A stretch of 62,364 bases of DNA, the filler included, from Globobulimina sp. (Eukaryota), in NCBI GenBank assembly GCA_003354225.1. It is 26 parts of 26 records of this genome, joined end to end, with 100 filler letters (N's around TTAATTAATTAA, not from the genome) between each part and the next. Parts side by side here need not be neighbours in the genome. Positions count along the whole stretch, not along the records: positions 43,253 to 45,554 come from PIVH01007530.1; 25 more parts are not named here. One strand, written 5' to 3'. Shown here piece after piece: positions 7,028 to 60,063 of this stretch (the first letter of the stretch is position 1; every line of letters starts with the position of its first letter). The notes below the pieces were generated by a model, which was not told where the DNA came from, made no database searches, and saw only the letters and a program-made list of their open reading frames with translations. The position numbers were made by a program, and so were the translations under genes.

Positions 7028-7233
7028 AAATAAAATATAGTGGAAAAATTATATTTTTTGTGTTTCTATTATAATTTTTACGTTATTGCCATTTTTGAGT
7101 GGAGTTTTAGCANNNNNNNNNNNNNNNNNNNNNNNNNNNNNNNNNNNNNNNNNNNNTTAATTAATTAANNNNNNNNNNNNNNNNNNNNNNNNNNNNNNNN
7201 NNNNNNNNNNNNTATTCAACTTTTTCTTTTCGA

Positions 7234-7344
7234 GGATGAGTAACGTTTCCGAAAACACAGTTTTTTGCCGAGGGAGCTCCGGGGGGTGGTGGGTGGGGAG
7301 CCCCCAAGGCAAAAAACTGTGTTTTCGGAACACGTTACTCAGCC
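7234..7344. repeat. Fold-back element: about 35-bp inverted arms around a GC-rich inner hairpin
   Basis: TGAGTAACGTTTCCGAAAACACAGTTTTTTGCC versus GGCAAAAAACTGTGTTTTCGGAACACGTTACTCA (one-base indel). Core: GGGAGCTCCGGGGGGTGGTGGGTGGGGAGCCCCC. Confidence 0.9.
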
Positions 7345-7786
7345 AAGATATAAAGTTGAATATGAATACGATGCTTTATTCCCAAAAATGACCATACAAT
7401 TTTTTTATATCATCATAATAATAAAAATGCTTTCGGCTTTTTTGATTGAGTTTATGGGAAAAAATTGAAATACAAACATTGCATCTATCAATTCTCTCTA
7501 CAATAATGCATCCATCCAACGAGACACAAACGATCTTATGGCGGCGAAGCCGCCGCAGCGTATTTATTATTCGAAGATAGTGATGATACCTCAATACGAG
7601 CATCTTTTTAAAGAAGATTTGGGTCTAAATCCCAATCATCACATATTTAATTTCTGTTTTTTTGTTTCTATTTGTGATTCCTAGGGAAAATAAAAGTGTT
7701 TTTCGTTTCTATTTTATTTTCTAAGTACTAAATAATAGGTTTTTGCATATAGCAAAAAACATCAGATAAAGTTACTTTTATAGGCG

Positions 7787-9333
7787 TTGTTGGGAATAAA
7801 CAAAGCAAACCATTTAAATCTGGTCAAGGTCGATTATTATCGGACATTAATTGAAATATCAAAGTGTATTCGGACATTAGCAAATCATACAAACTTAACA
7901 AATGATAACAATCAACAAATAAAAATCTTAGAACAAAACAAAAGAAAGCTGGATGCTGAATATATCAACGTTGTTAAATTAATGGAAGAACAGTTTCTGA
8001 AATGGGAAAGATATCAAAACGATGCAAAACATGAACTAACATCACAAATAAAAAATATACACAGTGAGCTCAACCAATTATGCTTTGACGATATAAATAA
8101 ACAAAAACAGAAACAGAAACAAATAAATGGCATTCTGATAAAATCAGAACCTGATAATAATAAAAGGCCGTTGCCAGTGGATAAGTTAATAGAATGTCAG
8201 CATTGTGGATTTGAAACGCATATTGCGAGCGAATTAACTTCTCATTGGCTCAAACAACATACTAAGGAAATTACATCATCAGTACCTGGTCTTGAACCGT
8301 TAGATACACAGAACATAGTTTCAAGCAATAAAAATACTTTGGATAATATTGATTTCATTTCTTGTAAAATATGCCACAAAACGTTTGAAACAAAATTCAG
8401 TGCACTGCTTCATTTTGATGTTCATGCAAGAGATATTTGCAATGTTTGTAATATTGAATATGGCGCAGACATTACAGATGGACAAAAAGAGAAACGTTGT
8501 TATGATAAACATGAATTTATATTGAATGAACTTGACAAACTCACCAAATTAACTTGTAAATATTGCCCATTCACCACAAGAATTCAAAATAATTTTATTC
8601 ACCATCAACTATCGCATAATAACGCATCAGCTGTACATAAAGAGAATGCCATTGGTAGCGATAAAGTGTATTATTTCCCAACATCGCATGGATGCCAACA
8701 TTGCTCACATACTACAAAACTAAACAACAGTTACGTATTCATTTGAGGTGCCATACCAATGAAAGGCCATTTGGGTGTAAAGAGTGTGGGAAAAAGTTCA
8801 CAGTTAAAAGCAGTTTGCGCAGCCATATGATAAATGTGCATGAAAATAAACGGGAATATAAATGTTCATATCCTGTTTGCTGTCGAGCATTTAATTCAAA
8901 CTATAAATCGAAGCAACATTTATATACACATACTGGAGAGAAACCATATAAATGTAAATATTGTGCGGAAATGTTCGGTGGCTCATCTCGAAAAAGAAGA
9001 CATGAAAAGAATGTGCATATTGGTTGGAAATGCAGACACTGTGATTGCAAATTTGGTACAGAATCTCTGTTGAAGCATCATAGGGAAAAAATGCATCCAA
9101 CGACTGATTTTAGGAAATATAAAGGGCAGAATTGGTTTGCTTATGGATGTGAGCGATGTGAGGAAAGGTTTAAAACGAAGGAAGAGGCAGATGTTCATGA
9201 AAGGAAATGTGATGAGGAGCTGGATGGTGATAATGAATTGGATAAGATATTAAAACGGAAAACAAAGAGATCAATCAAGAAAGTAAATAATGTGAATGAT
9301 AAAAAGAATAAAAAGAGAAGAAGAGACAATTAA
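7787..9333 (+). CDS. Multi-C2H2 zinc-finger protein with a 1-nt frameshift at 8716-8719; true start uncertain
   Basis: Many C-x2-C-x12-H-x3/4-H units and HTNERPF/HTGEKPY linkers. Adding one A restores CQHCSHTTKTKQQLRIHLRCH. Confidence 0.9.
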
Positions 9334-9356
9334 CTTTTTTGGCTTAGTTTCGTTTC

Positions 9357-9516
9357 GTTTCATTTCAACGATTAGCAAAGTTTTTGGGTTAGCTAGTGTG
9401 GTTTTCAACCTAGTATTCGAAGTTGACCTAGTATTCGATGACCTAGGTCAACTTCGAATGCTAGGTTCAAAACCACTCTAGCTAACCAAAAACTTTTCTA
9501 ATCGTTGAAATGAAAC
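9357..9516. repeat. Long palindrome (about 75-bp arms, 11-nt loop), dispersed family copy 1, runs into the contig end
   Basis: GTTTCATTTCAACGATTAG...TTCGAAGTTGACCTAG (9357-9431) is the near-perfect reverse complement of 9443-9516. Confidence 0.95.
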
Positions 9517-12496: not shown

Positions 12497-13588
12497 TTAT
12501 AAAAACTGGAGATGTAACGTGGATTCCCTTTGAATATTATATGTTGCTAAACAGCGATCATTATGCAACTGCTTCCCTCCATAAATTAATATTTGTGTTT
12601 CAGCCGCAATCCCTGTGTTTAGTGCAATAATCATCTTAATTGTTGAAATGTGATCTGACGCCAAACAATGCACAGTCAACGTGCTTCCTTCTTTTCTCTT
12701 TACAAAAATATCCATTTTCTTTTCCTGATAAAACATAATCGCAATACTTATTATTGCATCTGTAATATTTATCAACTGCGCCTGTTGCATTATTCGCATA
12801 TAACCAGTTATTAACACATTATCTCTGTCAATCTTAAATCTATATTTATTATATTGTTCTGCAGCATCTTTCATTCTACGTTTGTATTCCAATGGATATC
12901 GATTACGTTCTGGATAATGACAAAACGCGATCCATGGTTCATAGCTTGGAAATGGTTGATACGGTTTGCCAACATCAGCACCGCAGAAATCAATAATTAT
13001 CGATGAAATTGCACGCGAATCAATGTTTATTACACAATACTTAGAGACAAAAAAATCAATTAATTGTTGACATTCCTGTTTGCATTCCGTTGGTGTTAAT
13101 CCTCGCTGTAGATTTTTTAATTTATCATTCGGAACGGCATCCTGTGCATATTTAACATTGTATTCATAAATTAATTGAACAAATTTTATCACTTTAAACC
13201 TCATCATCTGTGCATAGTGAGGGACCAACGGATCATCTGCATTACCACCAGATGCCTGACACGACAATATTACCAAAAGCACTTTTGAAATGGTCAAAGC
13301 AGGCGACCAGTCCTCTTTTAATATATCACAATCAATGCTACCTTTTCTATTTATATTGACATGGATTATGGGAGTAATAAATTTGATGCTGGGCGGTTTA
13401 AATGGATAATCTCGAGGGAATCTTATTGATAGAAAGTAGACTCCGCCCTCATAAGGAGTTCCCTCCACCCCTGACATAGTCGCCTGCCATTCAAATAGAT
13501 TATATCCAACTGGGCCAGCACTGCAATTGGATAGTGGATTATTTTGAAGGTACTTCAATTCCTTCTCGATCCTTCGACGTGAAGCCAT
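12497..13588 (-). CDS. UBE2D-like ubiquitin-conjugating (E2) domain fused to a C-terminal ubiquitin-like domain
   Basis: E2: MASRRRIEKEL..CSAGPV..FEWQAT..GTPYEGGVYFLSIRFPRDYPFKPP..WSPALTISKVL. C-terminus: MDIFVK...QILIYGGKQL..RCLATYNIQRESTLHL. Confidence 0.92.
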   Translation of the reverse strand: MASRRRIEKELKYLQNNPLSNCSAGPVGYNLFEWQATMSGVEGTPYEGGVYFLSIRFPRDYPFKPPSIKFITPIIHVNINRKGSIDCDILKEDWSPALTISKVLLVILSCQASGGNADDPLVPHYAQMMRFKVIKFVQLIYEYNVKYAQDAVPNDKLKNLQRGLTPTECKQECQQLIDFFVSKYCVINIDSRAISSIIIDFCGADVGKPYQPFPSYEPWIAFCHYPERNRYPLEYKRRMKDAAEQYNKYRFKIDRDNVLITGYMRIMQQAQLINITDAIISIAIMFYQEKKMDIFVKRKEGSTLTVHCLASDHISTIKMIIALNTGIAAETQILIYGGKQLHNDRCLATYNIQRESTLHLQFL

Positions 13589-13640
13589 GTTTCAGATACA
13601 AGTAAGCGGAAAACAAGTGACACTAAAAAAACATAGAAAT

Positions 13641-19618: not shown

Positions 19619-19766
19619 AAGAGCATGAGGACCTTTGTCCATAAGTATTCTATTTTTTTCTATCGTCGCACATAAAGGGAAATTGACAAAGGTATAAAAA
19701 TTATAGGCTTGCCTTTGTTTCTCAGAAACAATTAATAAAAATCTGACGCTGAAAACCGATGCTCTT
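19619..19766 (-). mobile_element. MITE-like element, degenerate copy in inverse orientation to 40313-40459
   Basis: 19685-19766 matches the reverse complement of 40313-40392. AAGAGCAT remains at the other end. Length 148 bp versus 147 bp. Confidence 0.8.
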
Positions 19767-20298
19767 TTGACCTACATTTGTTGTGATTCACTTGGTTTGC
19801 AAATCACGTCGCAGAAGATATCATATACAATTAAACAAAACTGTATACATAAACCCATTCAAACATTCGAGATTTGAATAATTGATTTATTTTAAAATAT
19901 AAATTTAGAATTAAGTTAGAATTATTTTATAATATAACAATTTTATTATTTGTCGAAGAAATATATGTCAAAATAAAAAACAAATAATGAAACAAAGACG
20001 GCTGTGACTATAATTTTTAATTTAATTATACACACCACAAAATTCGCGTTATTTACGTATTACATGTGTAATATATGGGTTTTATGCCATTATATAATAA
20101 CACATAATTGGTGCACAACTAATTAGATTTATTTTTATAGCCACAGAGAAAAGAGAAGATACGTACAGGTAATCAACACATAATGAAAAAAATGAAGTAT
20201 AGATTACAATTTATTTGCAATTATACGTCCGGTGATCATACCCATTCATACAATATTGTGTAAAAATAATATAAAACAACATATTATGATATATTTGA

Positions 20299-24034: not shown

Positions 24035-25548
24035 GCTTTTGTGTCGGTGACCCTGTTGGTGTTATTATTGGACTATTTGTTGGAACATTGGATGGAAATG
24101 TTTGTATCGGAGTCTTTGTCGGTGTGTAAGTTGCCTTTTTGGATGGATTTAATGCTCCCGATTTTGTTGGTGCTATACTTGCATTTCTTGATGGATTGGA
24201 CGTAACATTTGGTGTCGAAATACAAATCGTAGTGGCGTTACCTACGTAGTTCAAAACGCAAAAATCCAAAACATTTCTTTGAAAATGTCCACCTGCACAT
24301 ATGACACATTTCAAATGTTACATACTTGCACAGATCCCATCCCATTCAGTCTCACAACAAAATGAGTCCGCAGCACAAATCTCCATTTCACACTGCGTAT
24401 CCACAGCACATCCAACAACATCATATTGCGCATTCATACAATCGCCATGACAACACTCCTTATACACTGTCGGCGGAGTGGCAGTGCCCACATCAGTCTC
24501 CGTCGTCGGTATCGCAGTGGCAGCTGTATTGGGCGCAGTGGTCGGTACCGCCGTGAGAACATCACAGATCTCCCTCCCATTACTCCTACTGATTGTGCCA
24601 TCATTGCAATCCACATTACTGCCGTCACAGCCTAGCCCATCGCACGTGTTCCTGCTGAAAGAGCCGCCATCACACATAGTCGGACAAGCGCCGCCACCGC
24701 ATAAAGCATGATAAGGCTGCAGTGGATAGGTAGCGGCAGTCTTAGATTGACTCATATAATCAGATTGGCATTGCGTGCGATCAGTCATACAGCTGCTACA
24801 AGAACTGCCTGCTTCGTATGGTGCGACGCTGTTGAAATTACCTGCGGGCCAATAGTTGCAGACAAAAAGTGCGGCCCAGCCCCCGCTGCTGCAGCCGTTG
24901 GCATAGCCACAGCCAATATATCTAGTATTGGCCCATATGAGTTGCGTGTAATGGCCACACATTGCGCCACTCTGACAGCCACTGTTATGGCTCCCGAATG
25001 TCCAGTATCGGTACTCATCGAACCAACCTGTTTCGATCTGAGAGAGTATGGTGGCTACGGTGTAAGCGCCAGAGAAGACTGCGATGTTCTCACCAACAGG
25101 GATGCAATCCTGACCAGAGCAAAAGTTCGACAGTTTTTGGGTGTCTGCGCCCCATTTGACAGTGCCTGTGTTGCGCTGAGCTAAGTACGTTATGCCTGCG
25201 TGGCTATTATGGCTCAAACCGGGACAGGTTTCTGCATAGCTTTGAGCTACGTTTTGTAAGCCAGTATCCCAAATTAGACTGTTCATTCCTGTGGCCGGTG
25301 GGTGGCCTGCTCCTGATAAGCCACCGCCTGCCACGCGGTGACGACTGTTGATGTGTTTGTGTTTGTGCAAATTGCGTGTGTGTTGATGTGATATTTACAT
25401 ACAGTTCGTTGTGAAGATCTAATATTTTCTGCTTTTCTAGCGTGGAGAATGGTGTACATGTTGCGTCACTACAATCGGATGAGAGTGGGGATACTGAGGG
25501 AATCGATAAATAAGATGATAGTAAAACAGTAAGAAAGTAGCATGCCAT
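24035..25548 (-). CDS. Secreted CAP/SCP (PR-1/antigen 5) protein with Cys-rich and Pro/Thr stalk regions; introns 25345-25402 and 24242-24325
   Basis: Signal peptide, ILDLHNELR after splicing, VGENIA, CGHYTQLIWANTRYIGCG, FVCNYWPAGNF and PT repeats. Confidence 0.93.
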
Positions 25549-26265: not shown

Positions 26266-26337
26266 GATTGGCAAGGTTTTTGGGTTAGCTAGAGTGGTTT
26301 TCAACCTAGTATTCGAAGTTGACCTAGGTTTCGAATC
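26266..26337. repeat. Second copy (one arm) of the 9357-9516 palindrome family, at a contig end
   Basis: GTTTTTGGGTTAGCTAGAGTGGTTTTCAACCTAGTATTCGAAGTTGACCTAG is nearly identical to the left arm of copy 1. Confidence 0.95.
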
Positions 26338-40312: not shown

Positions 40313-40459
40313 AAGAGCATCAGGTTTTCAGCGTCAGATTTTTATTGTTTCTGAGACACGAAGGCAAACCTATATTCTTTTTACCTTTATCAGTCACCAG
40401 AAACGGTTTGCGTATACCTTGCCCCAATAAAAATCTGACGCTGAAGACCGGATGCTCTT
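40313..40459 (+). mobile_element. 147-bp MITE-like element with 35-bp terminal inverted repeats
   Basis: AAGAGCATCAGGTTTTCAGCGTCAGATTTTTATTG and CAATAAAAATCTGACGCTGAAGACCGGATGCTCTT (2 mismatches). A second copy lies at 19619-19766. Confidence 0.88.
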
Positions 40460-40850
40460 TACTCACAGTGAACATTTACACTGGCGTAGTAATAGAGACA
40501 CATAATACAATCCATACGATAGTGCTTGTAACGCTCGCCATTAAAAATTTAAAATAAATAGCAGTTTTTAAACTTTGTCATGTCTTTGCGAAATTACATC
40601 GTTATTATATTTAGCATCCAATTATTGTTTCTATTTGGATTTTATTATCACATTGATATTTCGAATTAATTCATTCATTCAAACAACTCAAACGAATTTA
40701 ACTATAACAAAGCTCCATATCATCGAAAATAAGAAACCCAGAGTGGTTGTNNNNNNNNNNNNNNNNNNNNNNNNNNNNNNNNNNNNNNNNNNNNTTAATT
40801 AATTAANNNNNNNNNNNNNNNNNNNNNNNNNNNNNNNNNNNNNNNNNNNN

Positions 40851-43252: not shown

Positions 43253-43371
43253 GATGACGATGATATTGTACAAAACATGGATTTTCAACCAACGCCATCA
43301 GATATTCCTCATTATGTAACGGCAGATCGATTCAATGATCTACAAAATGCATTAGATCAGCAACAGGGTAC
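43253..43371 (+). repeat. 119-bp exact terminal direct repeat (second copy at 45436-45554); contig is circular or a collapsed tandem unit of 2183 bp
   Basis: GATGACGATGATATTGTACAAAACATGG...CAGCAACAGGGTAC occurs at both contig ends. Confidence 0.97.
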
Positions 43372-45554
43372 AATTGCGCGATTGCTACGAGATATGGATA
43401 AGTTGGCACCGCGGAAACGTCGTAAACGCCCAATACAAACCACATTAACTCCGCAATTATTATATACAAAATCAAATACTGTAAAACCATTACAATCAAA
43501 TACTAATTCAACACATTCGCCACAAATGCAATATTTATTTAATCGGTTTAGACAGGATCCAATATCTAAATATATAATGCAAAAACATTATGGATTGTCA
43601 ATATCGCAATTAATCGATGTAAATCAAATTAAATTCTTGTTAATAGTCAGACGTATTAATGGTTTCGTTATTATTCATTGTAAAATATGTGGCAGACATT
43701 ATCAATGCTCAAATAATTCAAAAACAACTATGTGTTGTAATCGCCATGGATTTAAAGTGCGTGATATTGATATGGATGACATACAAAAAGGTTCGGATCT
43801 CATTAATAAATTACTGAGACATTATAAAAAGAGTTACCATTTAAAGCATGAGTTGGCGTACAATGATCATGATGCACGTAATAGAACGTATACTTATATT
43901 CAAATTCGTGGGCTAAGCTCTTACATCATGCTTTTATTTCATGTCTTACATCTTTTGCGTTTGTTTGCGTTTGTGTTCGTTTGTTTGTGTTTGCATTCAG
44001 GCAGAAATAAATGGGAGATGTCGGATGTGGTTAGTCGCACAGAAAGCAAATGGCATGGAACATTTATTGGCTTGGAACAATATCTTTGGTCTGCTGAACG
44101 ACCAAAATTCAAAGACAGAGATAAAGCGCAGTTGGTATATAATAATATGAAGAAATTTAGTGTGTTGCCGACATCATTAGATACTGAAAACATTGACAAT
44201 GATTCTATGGAATTATTAATTTATGTAAAGGCATCATGTGATGGATTATATGGCACATTAATATCTGATTTAAATCGCATATTTACATTGAATCATGGCC
44301 CAAACTGCAAAATATATCCATCAATTGCTGGTGACAAGGCATATAAAGATGACATCCATACATATCAAAATTCGTATAAAGCTGCAGCAAAACATGACAA
44401 AATAGGAAAAGCTGCACAGAAAATAATGAAAATAGCATCAACGTATATGAGATATCCAAGAGCGGCATCAATACAACAATCTCTATCTGAGAAAAAAATT
44501 AAAATCACCAAATCGCCGGACCATCGATATGCCACTCATTTATTTGCCCAAGCAACGCCATTTCATGACAGCTATAAAGATATTAATCAGTTATTAACAG
44601 TGTGTAAATGGGAAAAGATCGATGCTGTCAAATCTGGACAGTTTGTAATTGAAATTATAGTTATTTTAGATTGGTTAGAAACGTGTTTAACGCGCTCAAT
44701 TAATTCATTTCAGCGCTCACAAAATTATCGTGGTTACGTTGAAATTTGTGAGGCAGATTCATACGAAAAACACTGTATAATCGAGCGAGTAAAACCGGTG
44801 TTATTATTCGTTTTAAATCATTTTATTGAACATCAAAATCTTGCTATTTGGACATCGTTTGAATTATATATTAAAACAATCAATGTTTTACCGCGTTTAT
44901 CTCAAAGTATATTATCATTGGTTGTATCGGGAACATTTCAAGGCTGCCATATTTATTTTAGTGAGGAAATTCATAATATGCACAACAGGAAATTCAAGAA
45001 AAGGCCTCGCACAGAATCGAGGATAGTAAACACCGTAGCAAATGTCAGCAAAATTCTTGCGACATTGCAAGAGATAAAACAGGAACAGAAACGAAATGCA
45101 GAGTCAGATATTATTGTAAATTTAAGTGATTCAGAGGATGATGATTCGTTATACGATTCCGAGGAAGAGATTGTACCCCTTTTAGAATCTGAAGATGAAG
45201 GTACGTCACTCATTTGTGTTTGCTTTGTTTTTGAGTCAGTCAAGCTACAAACATCATGCTTTGCTTTTATTTAAACAATGTCTTTAAAGTGAAAGATCCC
45301 CAAAATAAACCTGAAAATATTGAAATAAATATTGAGAATGAAGATAATATTGATAGTAATATTGAAATAACGGAGCATATTGAAAGTAAACAAAGCGATA
45401 TTATTGAAAGCGATGACTGTGATATTATTGAAAGCGATGACGATGATATTGTACAAAACATGGATTTTCAACCAACGCCATCAGATATTCCTCATTATGT
45501 AACGGCAGATCGATTCAATGATCTACAAAATGCATTAGATCAGCAACAGGGTAC
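43253..45554 (+). CDS. Stop-free spliced ORF, degenerate hAT/ZNF862-like transposase-related protein; intron 45201-45289 and probable intron near 43908-44000
   Basis: IHCKIC...LLRHYKKSYH (BED/TTF-like zinc finger), SIAGDK, DDIH, KSPDHRY (TRW-like position) and an acidic tract. The family assignment is tentative. Confidence 0.55.
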
Positions 45555-57662: not shown

Positions 57663-59653
57663 TAAACAATTGAGATATAGATACGTCTAATCGCAGATTG
57701 TGAGGCAAAGTTACGGAGCGTACGACGAACACAACCCATAGTACGACGGCCCTTTTTCACAACTTCATTCGTGTGTAGTGAATAAGATAAAGAGGGCTCT
57801 AACAAAAGACCAAGATATTTGTAACTGGACACACGTTCAATATTAATACCATTTATCTGAGGAGGATTAGTCAAATGGATAGGCTGAGGTGAGATACTGA
57901 ACAACATGTATTTGGTTTTTTTAGTGTTTAAAGAGAGTGAAAGAGAAGAAAATGAATTGTAAATAAGTTCAGTGTCTCGCCTTATGCATTCCTCAGAATT
58001 AGGAGATACAAGTGGATGCACATAGCACAAATCGTCTGCATACATTATAAGACTGCTATCTGGTGACAATTCCAGTTTACACACTGCATTTACATAAGCA
58101 ATGAACAAGAGAGGTCCAAGAATACTTCCTTGGACCACACCGGACAGGACATCACGAGGAGTAGACAGGGAAGCACCAACCCGGACTACATGTGTGCGTG
58201 CAGACAAGTACGATTTAATAACACATAACAGATACTCAGGAACACCGTATACTGTCTCCAAAACTGTCAACAGCCGGGCGTGAATAACAGAGTCAAATGC
58301 CTTAGAGATATCGTAAAATAAGGCACATACTCCAGTACTCAAACGCGACTGTACACATTTCTGAAAACCATTTAGTACATATGTATCAAAACACATTAGT
58401 GCATCAACAGTCGATCTAGCATGACGAAACCCAAACTGCTGGTCACTCAATTTCTGATAAATATAGGTTTCCAGCAATTTTCTAATATGGCGTTCAGCTG
58501 GCTTTGAATCAATGTCCAGCAAACTAACAGGCCTGTAATCCAATGGGTCAGCAGAGTTGAGTACTTTGGGCACAGGTGAGATAATAGCTTGTTTCCAGAC
58601 AGAGGGGAAAATACCCTCAGCCAACATCCGGTTTATAAGGACAGCTAAGGATGGAGCAATGTCAACTGCCCCTTCTTTCATCATTTTTGCATATATTCCA
58701 TTTATGCCAGGTGATTTGTTTATGCTCATTTGACAAATATCCAATAGCACAAAATCTTCTGAACATATCCAGTCCGGCTCCAATTGACCTGGTGCCGTTG
58801 CTGGAGGTGGTAGACCAGGGGAACGATTCCAAGCTCGATCATAGCAATCAGCCAATAGTTCCGCCTTAGCCTGTGGTTCAGTACAGAGGCCATTTGGTGA
58901 AAGCAATGAAGGGAGAGGTGGACGCGGACCTTTTAGGAAATATCGAATGTTAGCATAAAGGTCCTGTAATGAATTGACTTGTGAAAACTTTTCCTCCATG
59001 TAATGTTTCCTAGCTTCCCAAATAGCTTTGGTGACTCTTTTTTTCAGATGTTTGTGACGGGTTTGAAATTTGAGTTCTTTGGTTTTGTGCCATTTCCTAT
59101 AGGCCGAGTTCCGACGTTTTATCAAATTTAATAGTGGCTTTGTCATCCATGATTTCTGCACACGAAATTGAACTGTTTTTCTAGGAATAGCCGAACTCGC
59201 GGCTTCAAGTATAGCCTTCTGCCACAGAGCAGCTGCTGACTCGACTGTGTCTGCTAACAACACCAAATCTGTCAATTTAGCACTCGATAGTAGGGAGCGA
59301 AATAGGTTCCAATTAGCCCTTGAAAAACACCAAATATTTTTTGATTTTGGGGTCGGTACTTCTATCTTGAATGGAATGTCAATCCAAAGTAAGCAATGGT
59401 AATTTTCAACTGGAGCTCCTAAGCCCCAGCTGACATCAGACATATCTTTGTGGACATAAATATGGTCGATTCCTGATTGTGAACGAGGGGTAATATGGGT
59501 AGGGACATTGACCAACTGACAGAAATCTTGATTCTCACTGAATTGCTTAATTAACGTGTTTTCCTGAGGCTTAAGCACATCAATATTAAAGTCCCCAAGA
59601 ACTACAACAGTTGCGGATGTTAATATGGGTGATGTTCTGAGATAGAACATCAC
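57663..59653 (-). mobile_element. Non-LTR retrotransposon (LINE, CR1/L2-like) ORF2: end of the APE endonuclease plus reverse transcriptase
   Basis: VVLGDFNID, PTH..SGIDH, KSPGINGI, WKQAIISPVPK, DYRPVSLL, QQFGFR..RST, DISKAFDSV.H, SGVVQGSILGPLLF, YADD, YKYLG. Intronless and GC-richer than its flank. Confidence 0.96.
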
Positions 59654-60063
59654 CCATATTTGTCAGAAAATCTTCTATAAACTTGACTTTGATAAATATT
59701 ACTGTGATAACATTGTGTATTGTATTTTTGTATTTTTGTATTTGTGTACTAATGTATTCATGTATTTGTGCCTTGTAGCTTATCTTATAAGTCTGTGCAC
59801 TTCATTAATAAATTGTTCTTGCCATATATATAGTATCATAACAAAAACATCATCATATGATCATGCTTGACGCGGCAGCGTCAACCCCTTTAATATTTCC
59901 AGGAGGGTTAATGCACAATTACAAAATTGTCTACCCTATAACTTTTTTTCTATTGTACCAATTNNNNNNNNNNNNNNNNNNNNNNNNNNNNNNNNNNNNN
60001 NNNNNNNTTAATTAATTAANNNNNNNNNNNNNNNNNNNNNNNNNNNNNNNNNNNNNNNNNNNN

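Follow-up and report, generated by a model that had tools for sequence, protein, structure and literature searches.

Polyubiquitin is built of complete 76-codon units joined without a stop, and the D4Z4 macrosatellite of coding units that each carry their own stop. Transposases of the hAT group possess a D-x-W-[TS] block. With regard to contigs that look circular, the part of one report that deals with them describes their terminal repeats as technical, with a length equal to k (PMC8008677). In a sponge study, as far as its account of such contigs extends, a ring-like contig with one gene and no spacer between stop and start is described, for which a tandem repeat was possible (PMC8008677; PMC11572364).

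The window, that is, the whole stretch of 62,364 nucleotides of Globobulimina sp. that was analysed, consists of 26 separate contigs of 2301-2304 bp each, joined by N/TTAATTAATTAA linkers. The host of these contigs is an AT-rich, intron-poor eukaryote, and its assembly is highly fragmented. Contig 19 (43253-45554, 2302 bp) has a repeat unit of 2183 bp, and its ends carry the following features:

43253..43371, plus strand: terminal direct repeat copy 1, coding for DDDDIVQN-MDFQPTPSDIPHYVTADRFNDLQNALDQQQG; exact match to 45436-45554
45436..45554, plus strand: terminal direct repeat copy 2, 119 bp; exact match to copy 1
45397..45450, plus strand: 24-nt (8-codon) tandem repeat, 2.2 copies, across the contig cut point

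The two copies of the direct repeat are identical over 119 bp at a spacing of 2183, and both the repeat search and the contig comparison confirmed the exact end repeat and the unit length given in the original prediction. None of the other 25 contigs repeats more than 10 bp directly at its ends, which leaves contig 19 as the sole case among the 26. Its content is one unit plus 119 bp, which in simulation fits 1.06, 2.05 or many copies. The unit is coding throughout apart from short introns, and scanning the complete window with Rfam and for tRNAs returned nothing. In addition, the codon usage of the contig 19 ORF correlated with that of the window's other ORFs at r = 0.92, the highest of 13 values, which marks contig 19 as the host's own DNA.

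Simulated assemblies revealed how such a contig can be written. When two units and a further 119 bp were placed between flanks (L+U+U+119 bp+R), both k = 127 and k = 141 reproduced contig 19 exactly as the unitig. With k = 119, a cycle free of flanks came out as one unit plus 118 bp, or one unit plus 119 bp if the first k-mer was written a second time. A 10-copy array with its flanks retained yielded a 2183-bp unitig from which the terminal repeat was absent; a many-copy array therefore needs flanks that were pruned or that never received coverage. A single unit with a short flanked extension (L+U+133 bp+R for k = 127; L+U+161 bp+R for k = 141) likewise produced a unitig of 2302 bp with the 119-bp repeat at its ends. 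The contig thus arises either from an unflanked loop near a k of 119 or, at any larger k, from two flanked units plus 119 bp. Because a ring and an array yield the same contig in simulation, they are inseparable by sequence. The number 119 is a default k of one widely used assembler, which favours the unflanked loop and fits a ring or a many-copy array alike.

Frame 1 is open from 43253 up to a TAA at 45272-45274, and this TAA sits within the first of two intron-like stretches:

45201..45289, plus strand: candidate spliceosomal intron, 89 nt, GTACGT...TTTAAAG, phase 1, containing TAA 45272-45274
43908..44000, plus strand: T-rich 93-nt stretch, GTGGGC...TTCAG, phase 1, in frame, stop-free

Removal of the 89 nt leaves 2094 nt (698 codons) with no stop across two rounds of the unit, and removal of the 93 nt as well leaves 2001 nt (667 codons), again with no stop, while each of the five remaining frames, after splicing, contains 32-80 stops. 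The intron and the codon counts of the original prediction were thereby reproduced, and translation across the unit junction (...ESEDE-V-KDPQ...DDDDIVQN-MDFQPTP) bore out its frame running on into MDFQPTP without a stop; its description of the TAA as the only stop of the ORF was mistaken, since the unspliced frame has further stops at 45290, 45326 and 45368. The donor at 45201 has five in-frame acceptors (45235, 45244, 45289, 45295 and 45343), and the frame closes with all five. In 6 more contigs of the window, too, ORFs are connected through GTAYGT or GTAAGT donors. Among 2000 shuffles of 43253-45199 none was stop-free; for the 56 codons at 45292-45459, 48 of 20000 were, a figure that makes an open frame there look rarer than it is, because the stretch is built from codon-periodic short repeats. 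The 93-nt stretch contains a 10-nt tandem repeat, TTTGCGTTTG x4, whose period is no multiple of three; the model residues at this place (228-249) have a pLDDT <50, and it corresponds to an alignment gap against residues 408-502 of the relative P0003 (~95 residues, including an aspartate block). It is probably an intron or a deletion scar. A hybrid-intron or introner origin was considered and rejected, the two candidate introns having no more in common than stretches of 29 nt and 11 nt (E = 0.23 and 0.9).

The coding parts of the unit are as follows:

43253..43907, plus strand: coding part 1, with a helix, basic PRKRRKRP and a Cys/His cluster (translation)
43277..43279, plus strand: first in-frame ATG past the acidic tract, context ACAAAACATGG; candidate start codon of the unit
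43409-43432, plus strand: basic stretch PRKRRKRP (translation)
43679-43747, plus strand: Cys/His cluster C-x2-C-x5-C-x8-CC-x2-H (translation)
44001..45200, plus strand: coding part 2, with the core, the insertion domain and an acidic tail ending ...ESEDE
~44012-44332, plus strand: predicted RNase-H-like beta/alpha core (model secondary structure, Hermes matches)
~44351-44929, plus strand: predicted all-helical insertion domain (model secondary structure)
45290..45435, plus strand: acidic Ile/Asn/Glu/Asp-rich coding linker into the next unit (translation)

The AlphaFold model of the window protein (pLDDT 75.4, and >90 for residues 100-210) has strands at 254-276 and 323-328 and helices at 367-559, so that a predicted RNase-H-like core is interrupted by an all-helical insertion domain (TM 0.21-0.31). 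For two independent models, those of the window protein and of the relative P0004, Hermes transposase occupied PDB ranks 1-10, with E values of 4.9e-4 to 1e-2 and 8-11% identity at TM-scores of only 0.21-0.31. In the viral library, rank 1 was a Pandoravirus hAT-domain protein (E 1.5e-4). Language-model look-alikes came from hAT/DUF659/ZBED clusters, and their scores of only 0.75-0.84 make them leads only. The hAT likeness that had been proposed from decayed motifs thus stands at the level of the fold and fails in sequence profiles, where 0/29 members match hAT or BED Pfam models (including hAT C-terminal dimerisation) at E<=1. The proposed BED/TTF-like finger is not borne out: none of the 29 members has a Pfam match to zf-BED, and a conserved C-x2-C-x5-C-x8-CC-x2-H cluster is found instead, whose Cys and His are kept in 9-11 of the 11-12 relatives covering them. 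As to hAT element ends (terminal inverted repeats, 8-bp target duplication), the repeat search of the window found no inverted repeat at the unit's limits.

An exhaustive search of 1.84 billion representatives yielded 28 distant relatives at E<=1e-3 (the best at 2.4e-68 and 5e-61); a word-index homologue search with the window protein found none. Pfam returned nothing relevant for the window protein or any of the 29 family members, PHROGs nothing except one chance-level row for P0021, and the PDB, searched by sequence with the single protein and then with a profile, no meaningful match. A family with a predicted hAT-like fold thus lies outside every Pfam model. Three full-length relatives have 1382, 1195 and 1676 aa, and a eukaryote protein set is the source of three relatives. 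Coding part 2 is the best-conserved region among the relatives; an upstream excess of at least 100 residues was seen in 5/9 relatives reaching the N part of the unit, and a downstream excess of at least 100 residues in 6/8 reaching its C part. Judged by these alignments, the unit is only the middle portion of a longer family protein and has neither its N-terminal nor its C-terminal domain. The family's N or C domain was also absent from the other 25 contigs by tblastn, a search confined to the 26 contigs of the window. No relative aligns to the linker at 45290-45435, and tblastn matches end by contig position 1920; an attempt to assign this acidic exon to the N-side or C-side linker of the relatives was rejected, the BLASTP E being only ~1.

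The aspartate block [TS][LIV]xxD[TA]x[SG], with the conserved D of ...DT[WY]S, is present in 10/29 relatives and missing from the window copy. Where a relative has both this block and the KGEM motif, the block lies 12 residues ahead of KGE (8/8). P0013 and P0021 have internal gaps where the block belongs, and every other relative with sequence there has it; gene models therefore vary across the family. With regard to the catalytic D, D, E triad of hAT transposases, the GDxxY motif keeps its D in 16/16 sequences, window copy included, and in the conserved QRxQNYRG a Q may stand in the place of an expected E. The three matched stretches of P0003 are pieces of one collinear alignment, and no two-unit protein was found among the 29 relatives.

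The best explanation, which we hold with evenly divided confidence, is that a truncated transposase-derived unit, probably inactive, is repeated head to tail in a chromosome. Under it, the assembler would have written the repeated 2183-bp unit as a loop-like contig of one unit plus 119 bp. The unit itself is the middle part of a gene of a small eukaryotic family with a hAT-like predicted fold, comprising a zinc-type Cys/His cluster, an RNase-H-like core and a helical insertion domain. The repeat may have been born by unequal exchange or slippage between two acidic codon-periodic linkers that border the core in full-length relatives, or alternatively by exchange between two same-phase introns, and either route would keep the frame. 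For the linkers speaks the 24-nt codon-periodic repeat right at the cut point. The endless frame is then most likely a by-product of unit borders in codon-periodic acidic linkers and no device for an endless protein, and the unit contains no non-coding space for an origin, promoter or terminator. The enzyme is most likely dead, since both terminal domains are missing, as is the aspartate block that precedes KGEM. The 649 stop-free codons speak for a copy that is young or still selected, which fits poorly with a dead fragment; the absence of the family's N or C domain from the other 25 contigs of the window and the internal gaps of P0013 and P0021 also count against this account. The exact repeat, the closure of the frame upon splicing, the kinship, the truncation and the fold are shown, whereas we infer that the repeat is chromosomal, how many copies it has, where its units join, that the intron is spliced and that activity is lost.

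A genuine 2183-bp ring of extrachromosomal DNA is a distinctly weaker but still serious candidate. Recombination between the two acidic linkers, or between two related introns, would have released such a ring from a full-length gene of the family or from an array, and the ring would be over-represented in the library, for example after rolling-circle-type whole-genome amplification. Very fragmented assemblies are frequent for amplified low-input samples, and the fragmentation of this one is consistent with that course. The terminal repeat has the length of a common k, as the simulated unflanked cycle predicts, and a stretch of 29 nt at ~80% identity and an 11-mer recur, in permuted order, in both candidate introns, a weak likeness (E = 0.23, 0.9). 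In the plants covered by one account, rings derived from tandem repeats, with sizes that are multiples of the unit, are common (PMC2543021), and hAT elements make episomes according to another (PMC2803484). However, the episomes described there have joined element ends (PMC2803484), whereas the unit is an internal coding piece without inverted ends. A ring would also lack non-coding sequence for replication or expression, and the flanks would vanish from the graph only if it were far more abundant than its chromosomal source. It resembles no known plasmid, contig 19 having no blastn match in the plasmid collection, and no bacterial or archaeal record searched, the genome contigs of these groups yielding no relative in small alignment and single-protein scans. 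The contig itself is no demonstration of a ring, because a linear flanked tandem duplication gives an identical one. A small circular Rep-type virus was rejected as a candidate: the ORF is no Rep protein, and the origin-like motif ANTATTAC was found 19 times against 16.9 expected, with one occurrence in contig 19.

That the organism contains no unit-to-unit junction, the join being a chimera of amplification or a wrong join in the graph, seems unlikely to us. Amplification chimeras are mostly inverted rather than direct joins, and the join here is direct, in clean coding sequence with splice signals intact. A precedent is the 141-bp duplicate in a MEGAHIT assembly which, in the case described, was supported by no read (PMC11572364). 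In another form of this explanation the contig is a unitig between two short exact repeat copies, with one unit and ~130-160 bp, and the simulated single unit with 133 or 161 bp does yield the 2302-bp unitig; yet even this form presupposes that at least 119 bp of non-repetitive coding sequence really recur, in frame, at a distance of 2183 bp downstream.

It is quite improbable that the 89-nt stretch stays unspliced and that the units are separate genes, each ending at TAA 45272-45274 with the next ATG 185 nt on. The stop is real, and the tract after it is AT-rich with short repeats. Against this, the GTACGT donor after AAG and the TTTAAAG acceptor match donors joining ORFs in other contigs, the downstream frame continues through 56 codons without a stop and shares the acidic character of the preceding tail, and 185 nt are very short for a terminator plus a promoter.

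A working gene, in which an array or ring is transcribed and spliced into a stop-free message for a huge or unit-cleaved repeat protein, is very unlikely, although the frame closes with all five acceptors, the ORF is intact for 649 codons (0/2000 shuffles stop-free), codon usage is native and the ATG at 43277 is in good context. The giant polyprotein of the original prediction is disfavoured by the truncation of the unit to a middle part of the family protein without the aspartate block, by the want of space for a promoter or terminator, and by the single-unit state of all 29 relatives (0/29 with two units); moreover, closure occurs by chance in 1/3 of cases, and oftener between codon-periodic linkers. 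Least probable of all is a coding-only 2.2-kb ring or long array in which the core of a hAT-like transposase gene closes via a same-phase intron and which is transcribed and spliced into a stop-free message. If true, a transposase-derived concatemer would be translated from it, the equivalent in DNA of rolling-circle translation, with recombination between acidic linkers or related introns flanking the core as its source.

The biological value of the locus, read as a chromosomal repeat, is modest. It offers a caution that an exact end repeat of k-like length together with a self-closing frame is also produced, letter for letter, by a plain flanked tandem duplication. It also points to a small eukaryotic family with a predicted hAT-like fold beyond Pfam (28 representatives in 1.84 billion), with one truncated, repeated copy. 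If it were a true ring or a long expressed array, it would be a rare coding-only repeat with an endless frame.

Compared with known systems, the unit is closest in predicted fold to Hermes (hAT; PDB 4d1q / 2bw3 / 8sjd), with which it shares the split RNase-H-like core, the all-helical insertion and an upstream zinc-type module. The ...DT[WY]S of the relatives also recalls the hAT D-x-W-[TS] block; in contrast, the full-length relatives have additional N and C domains and reach twice the length, and the window copy has neither the aspartate block nor element ends. Polyubiquitin and D4Z4 are likewise tandem units that each carry coding sequence, but the unit here, at 698 codons, represents only part of a longer protein. 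Episomal hobo and Hermes show that small, inheritable hAT-derived extrachromosomal rings exist; in the cases described these contain the whole element with joined inverted ends, often with intercalary DNA (PMC2803484), whereas the window unit is internal coding sequence. Tandem arrays release rings of unit multiples by homologous recombination, and both forms may coexist, but the units in the account concerned are non-coding satellites (PMC2543021) and this one is coding throughout. Circular contigs with a k-length repeat share the exact terminal repeat of k-like length; the cases in the relevant parts of the two reports concern phage concatemers or stop-bearing organelle genes (PMC8008677, PMC11572364), whereas contig 19 carries a nuclear-type gene that has introns and is stop-free. 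Finally, rolling-circle translation of circular RNAs, as outlined in PMC4639774, also involves a closed stop-free frame on a circular template, but there the ring is RNA made by back-splicing, while here the closure lies in DNA, where an intron is still present.

The contig at 43253-45554 (contig 19, 2302 bp) carries the same 119 bp, exactly, at both ends, which gives a repeat unit with a period of 2183 bp; among the 26 contigs, no other has a direct repeat of more than 10 bp at its termini. Its features, on the strand of frame 1, are as follows.

43908-44000: candidate intron, 93 nt, T-rich, containing a 10-nt tandem repeat
45201-45289: candidate intron, 89 nt, donor GTACGT, acceptor TTTAAAG
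45272-45274: TAA, the stop ending frame 1
45397-45450: 24-nt repeat, 2.2 copies

Frame 1 is open from base 1 up to the TAA, which falls within the 89-nt stretch. Removal of this stretch leaves 2094 nt, or 698 codons, with no stop in two rounds of the unit, and removal of both candidate introns leaves 2001 nt, or 667 codons; the end repeat and the endless spliced frame of the original prediction were thus both recovered. All five in-frame acceptors usable by the donor at 45201 close the frame, and we infer from the sequence that 45201-45289 would be removed by splicing. The other five frames of the unit contain 32-80 stops apiece. No stop-free sequence arose when the main ORF was shuffled 2000 times; for a 56-codon acidic stretch, 48 of 20000 shuffles were stop-free, but that stretch is built of codon-periodic short repeats, including the 24-nt repeat, which makes its open frame less remarkable than these figures imply. 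The two candidate introns share AAGCT-C..ACATCATGCTTT..TTT.AT (29 nt, ~80%) and TTTGTGTTTGC in permuted order, a weak likeness (E 0.23 and 0.9).

The window of 62,364 bases consists of 26 separate contigs of 2301-2304 bp, ordered by size and joined by N/TTAATTAATTAA linkers, and is not a single locus. GC per contig ranges from 0.26 to 0.43. The products of the long ORFs are ordinary for a eukaryote (PPR, E2 enzyme, PIG-M, gamma-tubulin complex, M1 peptidase, CAP-Gly, CLC channel and reverse transcriptase), and several pairs of ORFs could be connected by short GTATGT/GTACGT/GTAAGT...AG introns. The sequence thus comes from a fragmented draft of a eukaryote that is AT-rich and poor in introns. 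Of the 22 long ORFs scanned, 9 lacked a Pfam family at E<=1e-5, and no tRNA gene or Rfam family at gathering score was found across the 62 kb. The codon usage of the contig 19 ORF correlated with that of the pooled other ORFs at r = 0.92, more closely than any other of the 13, indicating that contig 19 is the host's own DNA.

Several other contigs showed features of their own. The final ~160 nt of contig 4 (9357-9516 of 7213-9516) are self-reverse-complementary (162 columns, 90%), its opening 150 nt (7213-7362) are weakly so (75%), and ~70 nt of this repeat are found again, in both orientations (93% and 89%), where contig 11 ends (26266-26336); the pattern suggests a family of palindromic or foldback repeats that breaks contigs. 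Contig 11 also carries an ORF at 24318-25394 (-) with a CAP (cysteine-rich secretory protein) domain, a GC of 0.51 and a codon-usage correlation of just 0.20 with the window's remaining ORFs, against 0.69 to 0.92 for the others, a compositional outlier that possibly comes from another genome or is a transferred gene. On contig 6, a single unbroken ORF (12497-13591, -) combines a ubiquitin-conjugating (E2) domain at residues 7-139 with a ubiquitin-like domain nearer the C terminus, at residues 295-361, and ends in ...LHLQFL, without Gly-Gly. The 666-residue open frame at 57663-59662 (-) on contig 25 has a reverse-transcriptase domain (RVT_1, E 1.1e-25) and represents a copy of a retroelement, with a 40-nt palindrome close by (contig positions 1960-1998). 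Contigs 9 (19684-19767) and 17 (40313-40460) have in common an 84-nt repeat (86%), with a 35-nt inverted copy (94%), which is a short dispersed repeat.

Searches of Pfam, PHROGs, PDB by sequence and a word index gave no match to the contig 19 protein. When 1.84 billion representatives were searched exhaustively with HMMER, 28 proteins scored E<=1e-3, of which 16 reached <=1e-10 and 5 reached <=1e-30, led by P0003 (1382 aa, 2.4e-68) and P0004 (1195 aa, 5e-61), and P0003 as query added P0031 (1676 aa), which bears a SAM_2 domain; all three are labelled as from a eukaryote protein set. The full-length relatives share an architecture of a ~190-residue N-terminal domain with Cys and His, an acidic/Asn-rich linker, and a 'YVT' helix with a basic stretch; behind these come a Cys/His cluster and a ~400-residue core, from which a second acidic linker leads to a C-terminal domain of 300-800 residues. 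The alignment of the unit is limited to residues 209-828 of P0003. Its N part is reached by 9 of the 29 relatives, 5 of which continue at least 100 residues upstream (P0026 and P0030, whose upstream parts are long as well, lie just beyond the threshold and were not counted), and its C part by 8, of which 6 continue at least 100 residues downstream. The unit is thus an interior segment of the family protein. No relative aligned to the final 380 nt of contig 19, and no family sequence was found in the other 25 contigs.

The AlphaFold model of the window protein (29-sequence alignment, mean pLDDT 75.4) has a beta-beta-(beta)-alpha-beta-alpha core, after which come ~190 helical residues. Hermes transposase occupied all of ranks 1-10 in the PDB (E 5.4e-4 to 9.3e-3, probability 0.93-1.0), with low TM-scores of 0.21-0.31 and 8-10% identity, followed by Transib transposase and generic RNase-H-like folds; the P0004 model (pLDDT 62.1) likewise gave Hermes at ranks 1-10. 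The lone match at E<=1e-3 in a viral structure library was a Pandoravirus protein whose annotation includes a hAT dimerisation domain, and language-model look-alikes fell in hAT/DUF659/ZBED clusters (scores 0.75-0.84), a lead at most. However, hAT and BED profiles matched 0 of the 29 family members. Therefore, the predicted hAT kinship stands for the modelled fold, and we call the protein hAT-like in fold, its membership of the superfamily being unproven; the BED/TTF-like finger was not borne out. Compared with hAT transposases, the fold is alike, whereas the proteins are about double the length and form a family without a name.

Between ...NRTxTYxQ and the conserved KGEM motif, the relatives hold ~95 residues ending in [TS][LIV]xxD[TA]x[SG] (for example, SLHADTYS and TLFADTWS), which resembles the D-x-W-[TS] block, the site of the first catalytic aspartate in hAT transposases. 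This motif occurs in 10 of 29 relatives, 12 residues ahead of KGE in 8 of 8 having both; in the other 19 the alignment ends or gaps at this position, with internal gaps in P0013 and P0021. The block is absent from the window copy, where 43908-44000 occupies its place, either as an intron whose GTGGGC donor is weak or as a deletion scar.

De Bruijn unitigs were simulated from strings of the real unit and random flanks. With two units plus 119 bp between flanks (case a), the unitig equalled contig 19 at k = 127 and 141 and was slightly shorter at k = 99 and 119. One flanked unit plus 133 bp (k = 127) or 161 bp (k = 141; case b) likewise produced a unitig of 2302 bp whose terminal repeat was 119 bp. 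For an unflanked cycle at k = 119 (case c), the result was the unit + 118 by the convention used, or + 119 if the assembler rewrites the first k-mer, and a 10-copy array with flanks kept (case d) gave 2183 bp without a terminal repeat. Thus, the contig by itself fits a ring, a many-copy array with pruned flanks and a short flanked duplication alike, and the array, circle and duplication or artefact options first proposed are all compatible with it. The value 119 is a default k in one widely used assembler. Such terminal repeats are described in a passage of PMC8008677 as technical and k in length. These two considerations speak for case (c), as in (a) and (b) the 119 bp would be a coincidence. 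Case (c) suits an array no less than a ring, and an excerpt of PMC11572364 describes the same ambiguity for a ring-like contig of one gene without spacer.

At a minimum, 119 bp or more of non-repetitive coding sequence belonging to the core start recur 2183 bp downstream, in frame and directly after the acidic tail. We prefer a chromosomal head-to-tail repeat, to which we give about an even chance, because neither an origin nor a promoter would fit in the unit and a ring would need to outnumber its source locus greatly. Acidic, low-complexity linkers lie on either side of the core in full-length relatives, and the cut point of contig 19 sits inside the codon-periodic 24-nt repeat. Exchange or slippage between these two linkers most likely duplicated or excised the core with the frame kept; alternatively, since both candidate introns of contig 19 are phase 1, exchange may have occurred between two introns of that phase. 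By either route, the endless frame would require no function. The intact frame of 649 codons counts against a dead fragment, the copy being young or constrained.

An extrachromosomal ring is a distinctly less probable source. In its favour, small rings are enriched in amplified low-input libraries, tandem arrays shed rings (PMC2543021), and hAT episomes are reported (PMC2803484). An artefact is improbable, and an expressed endless polyprotein, despite the closed frame, more improbable still. Macrosatellites with coding units and polyubiquitin-type genes are repeats resembling that of contig 19, whose unit, in contrast, is a fragment. A ring would be akin to satellite-derived rings or hAT episomes, but the unit lacks element ends; an endless frame has a known counterpart in circular RNAs only (PMC4639774).
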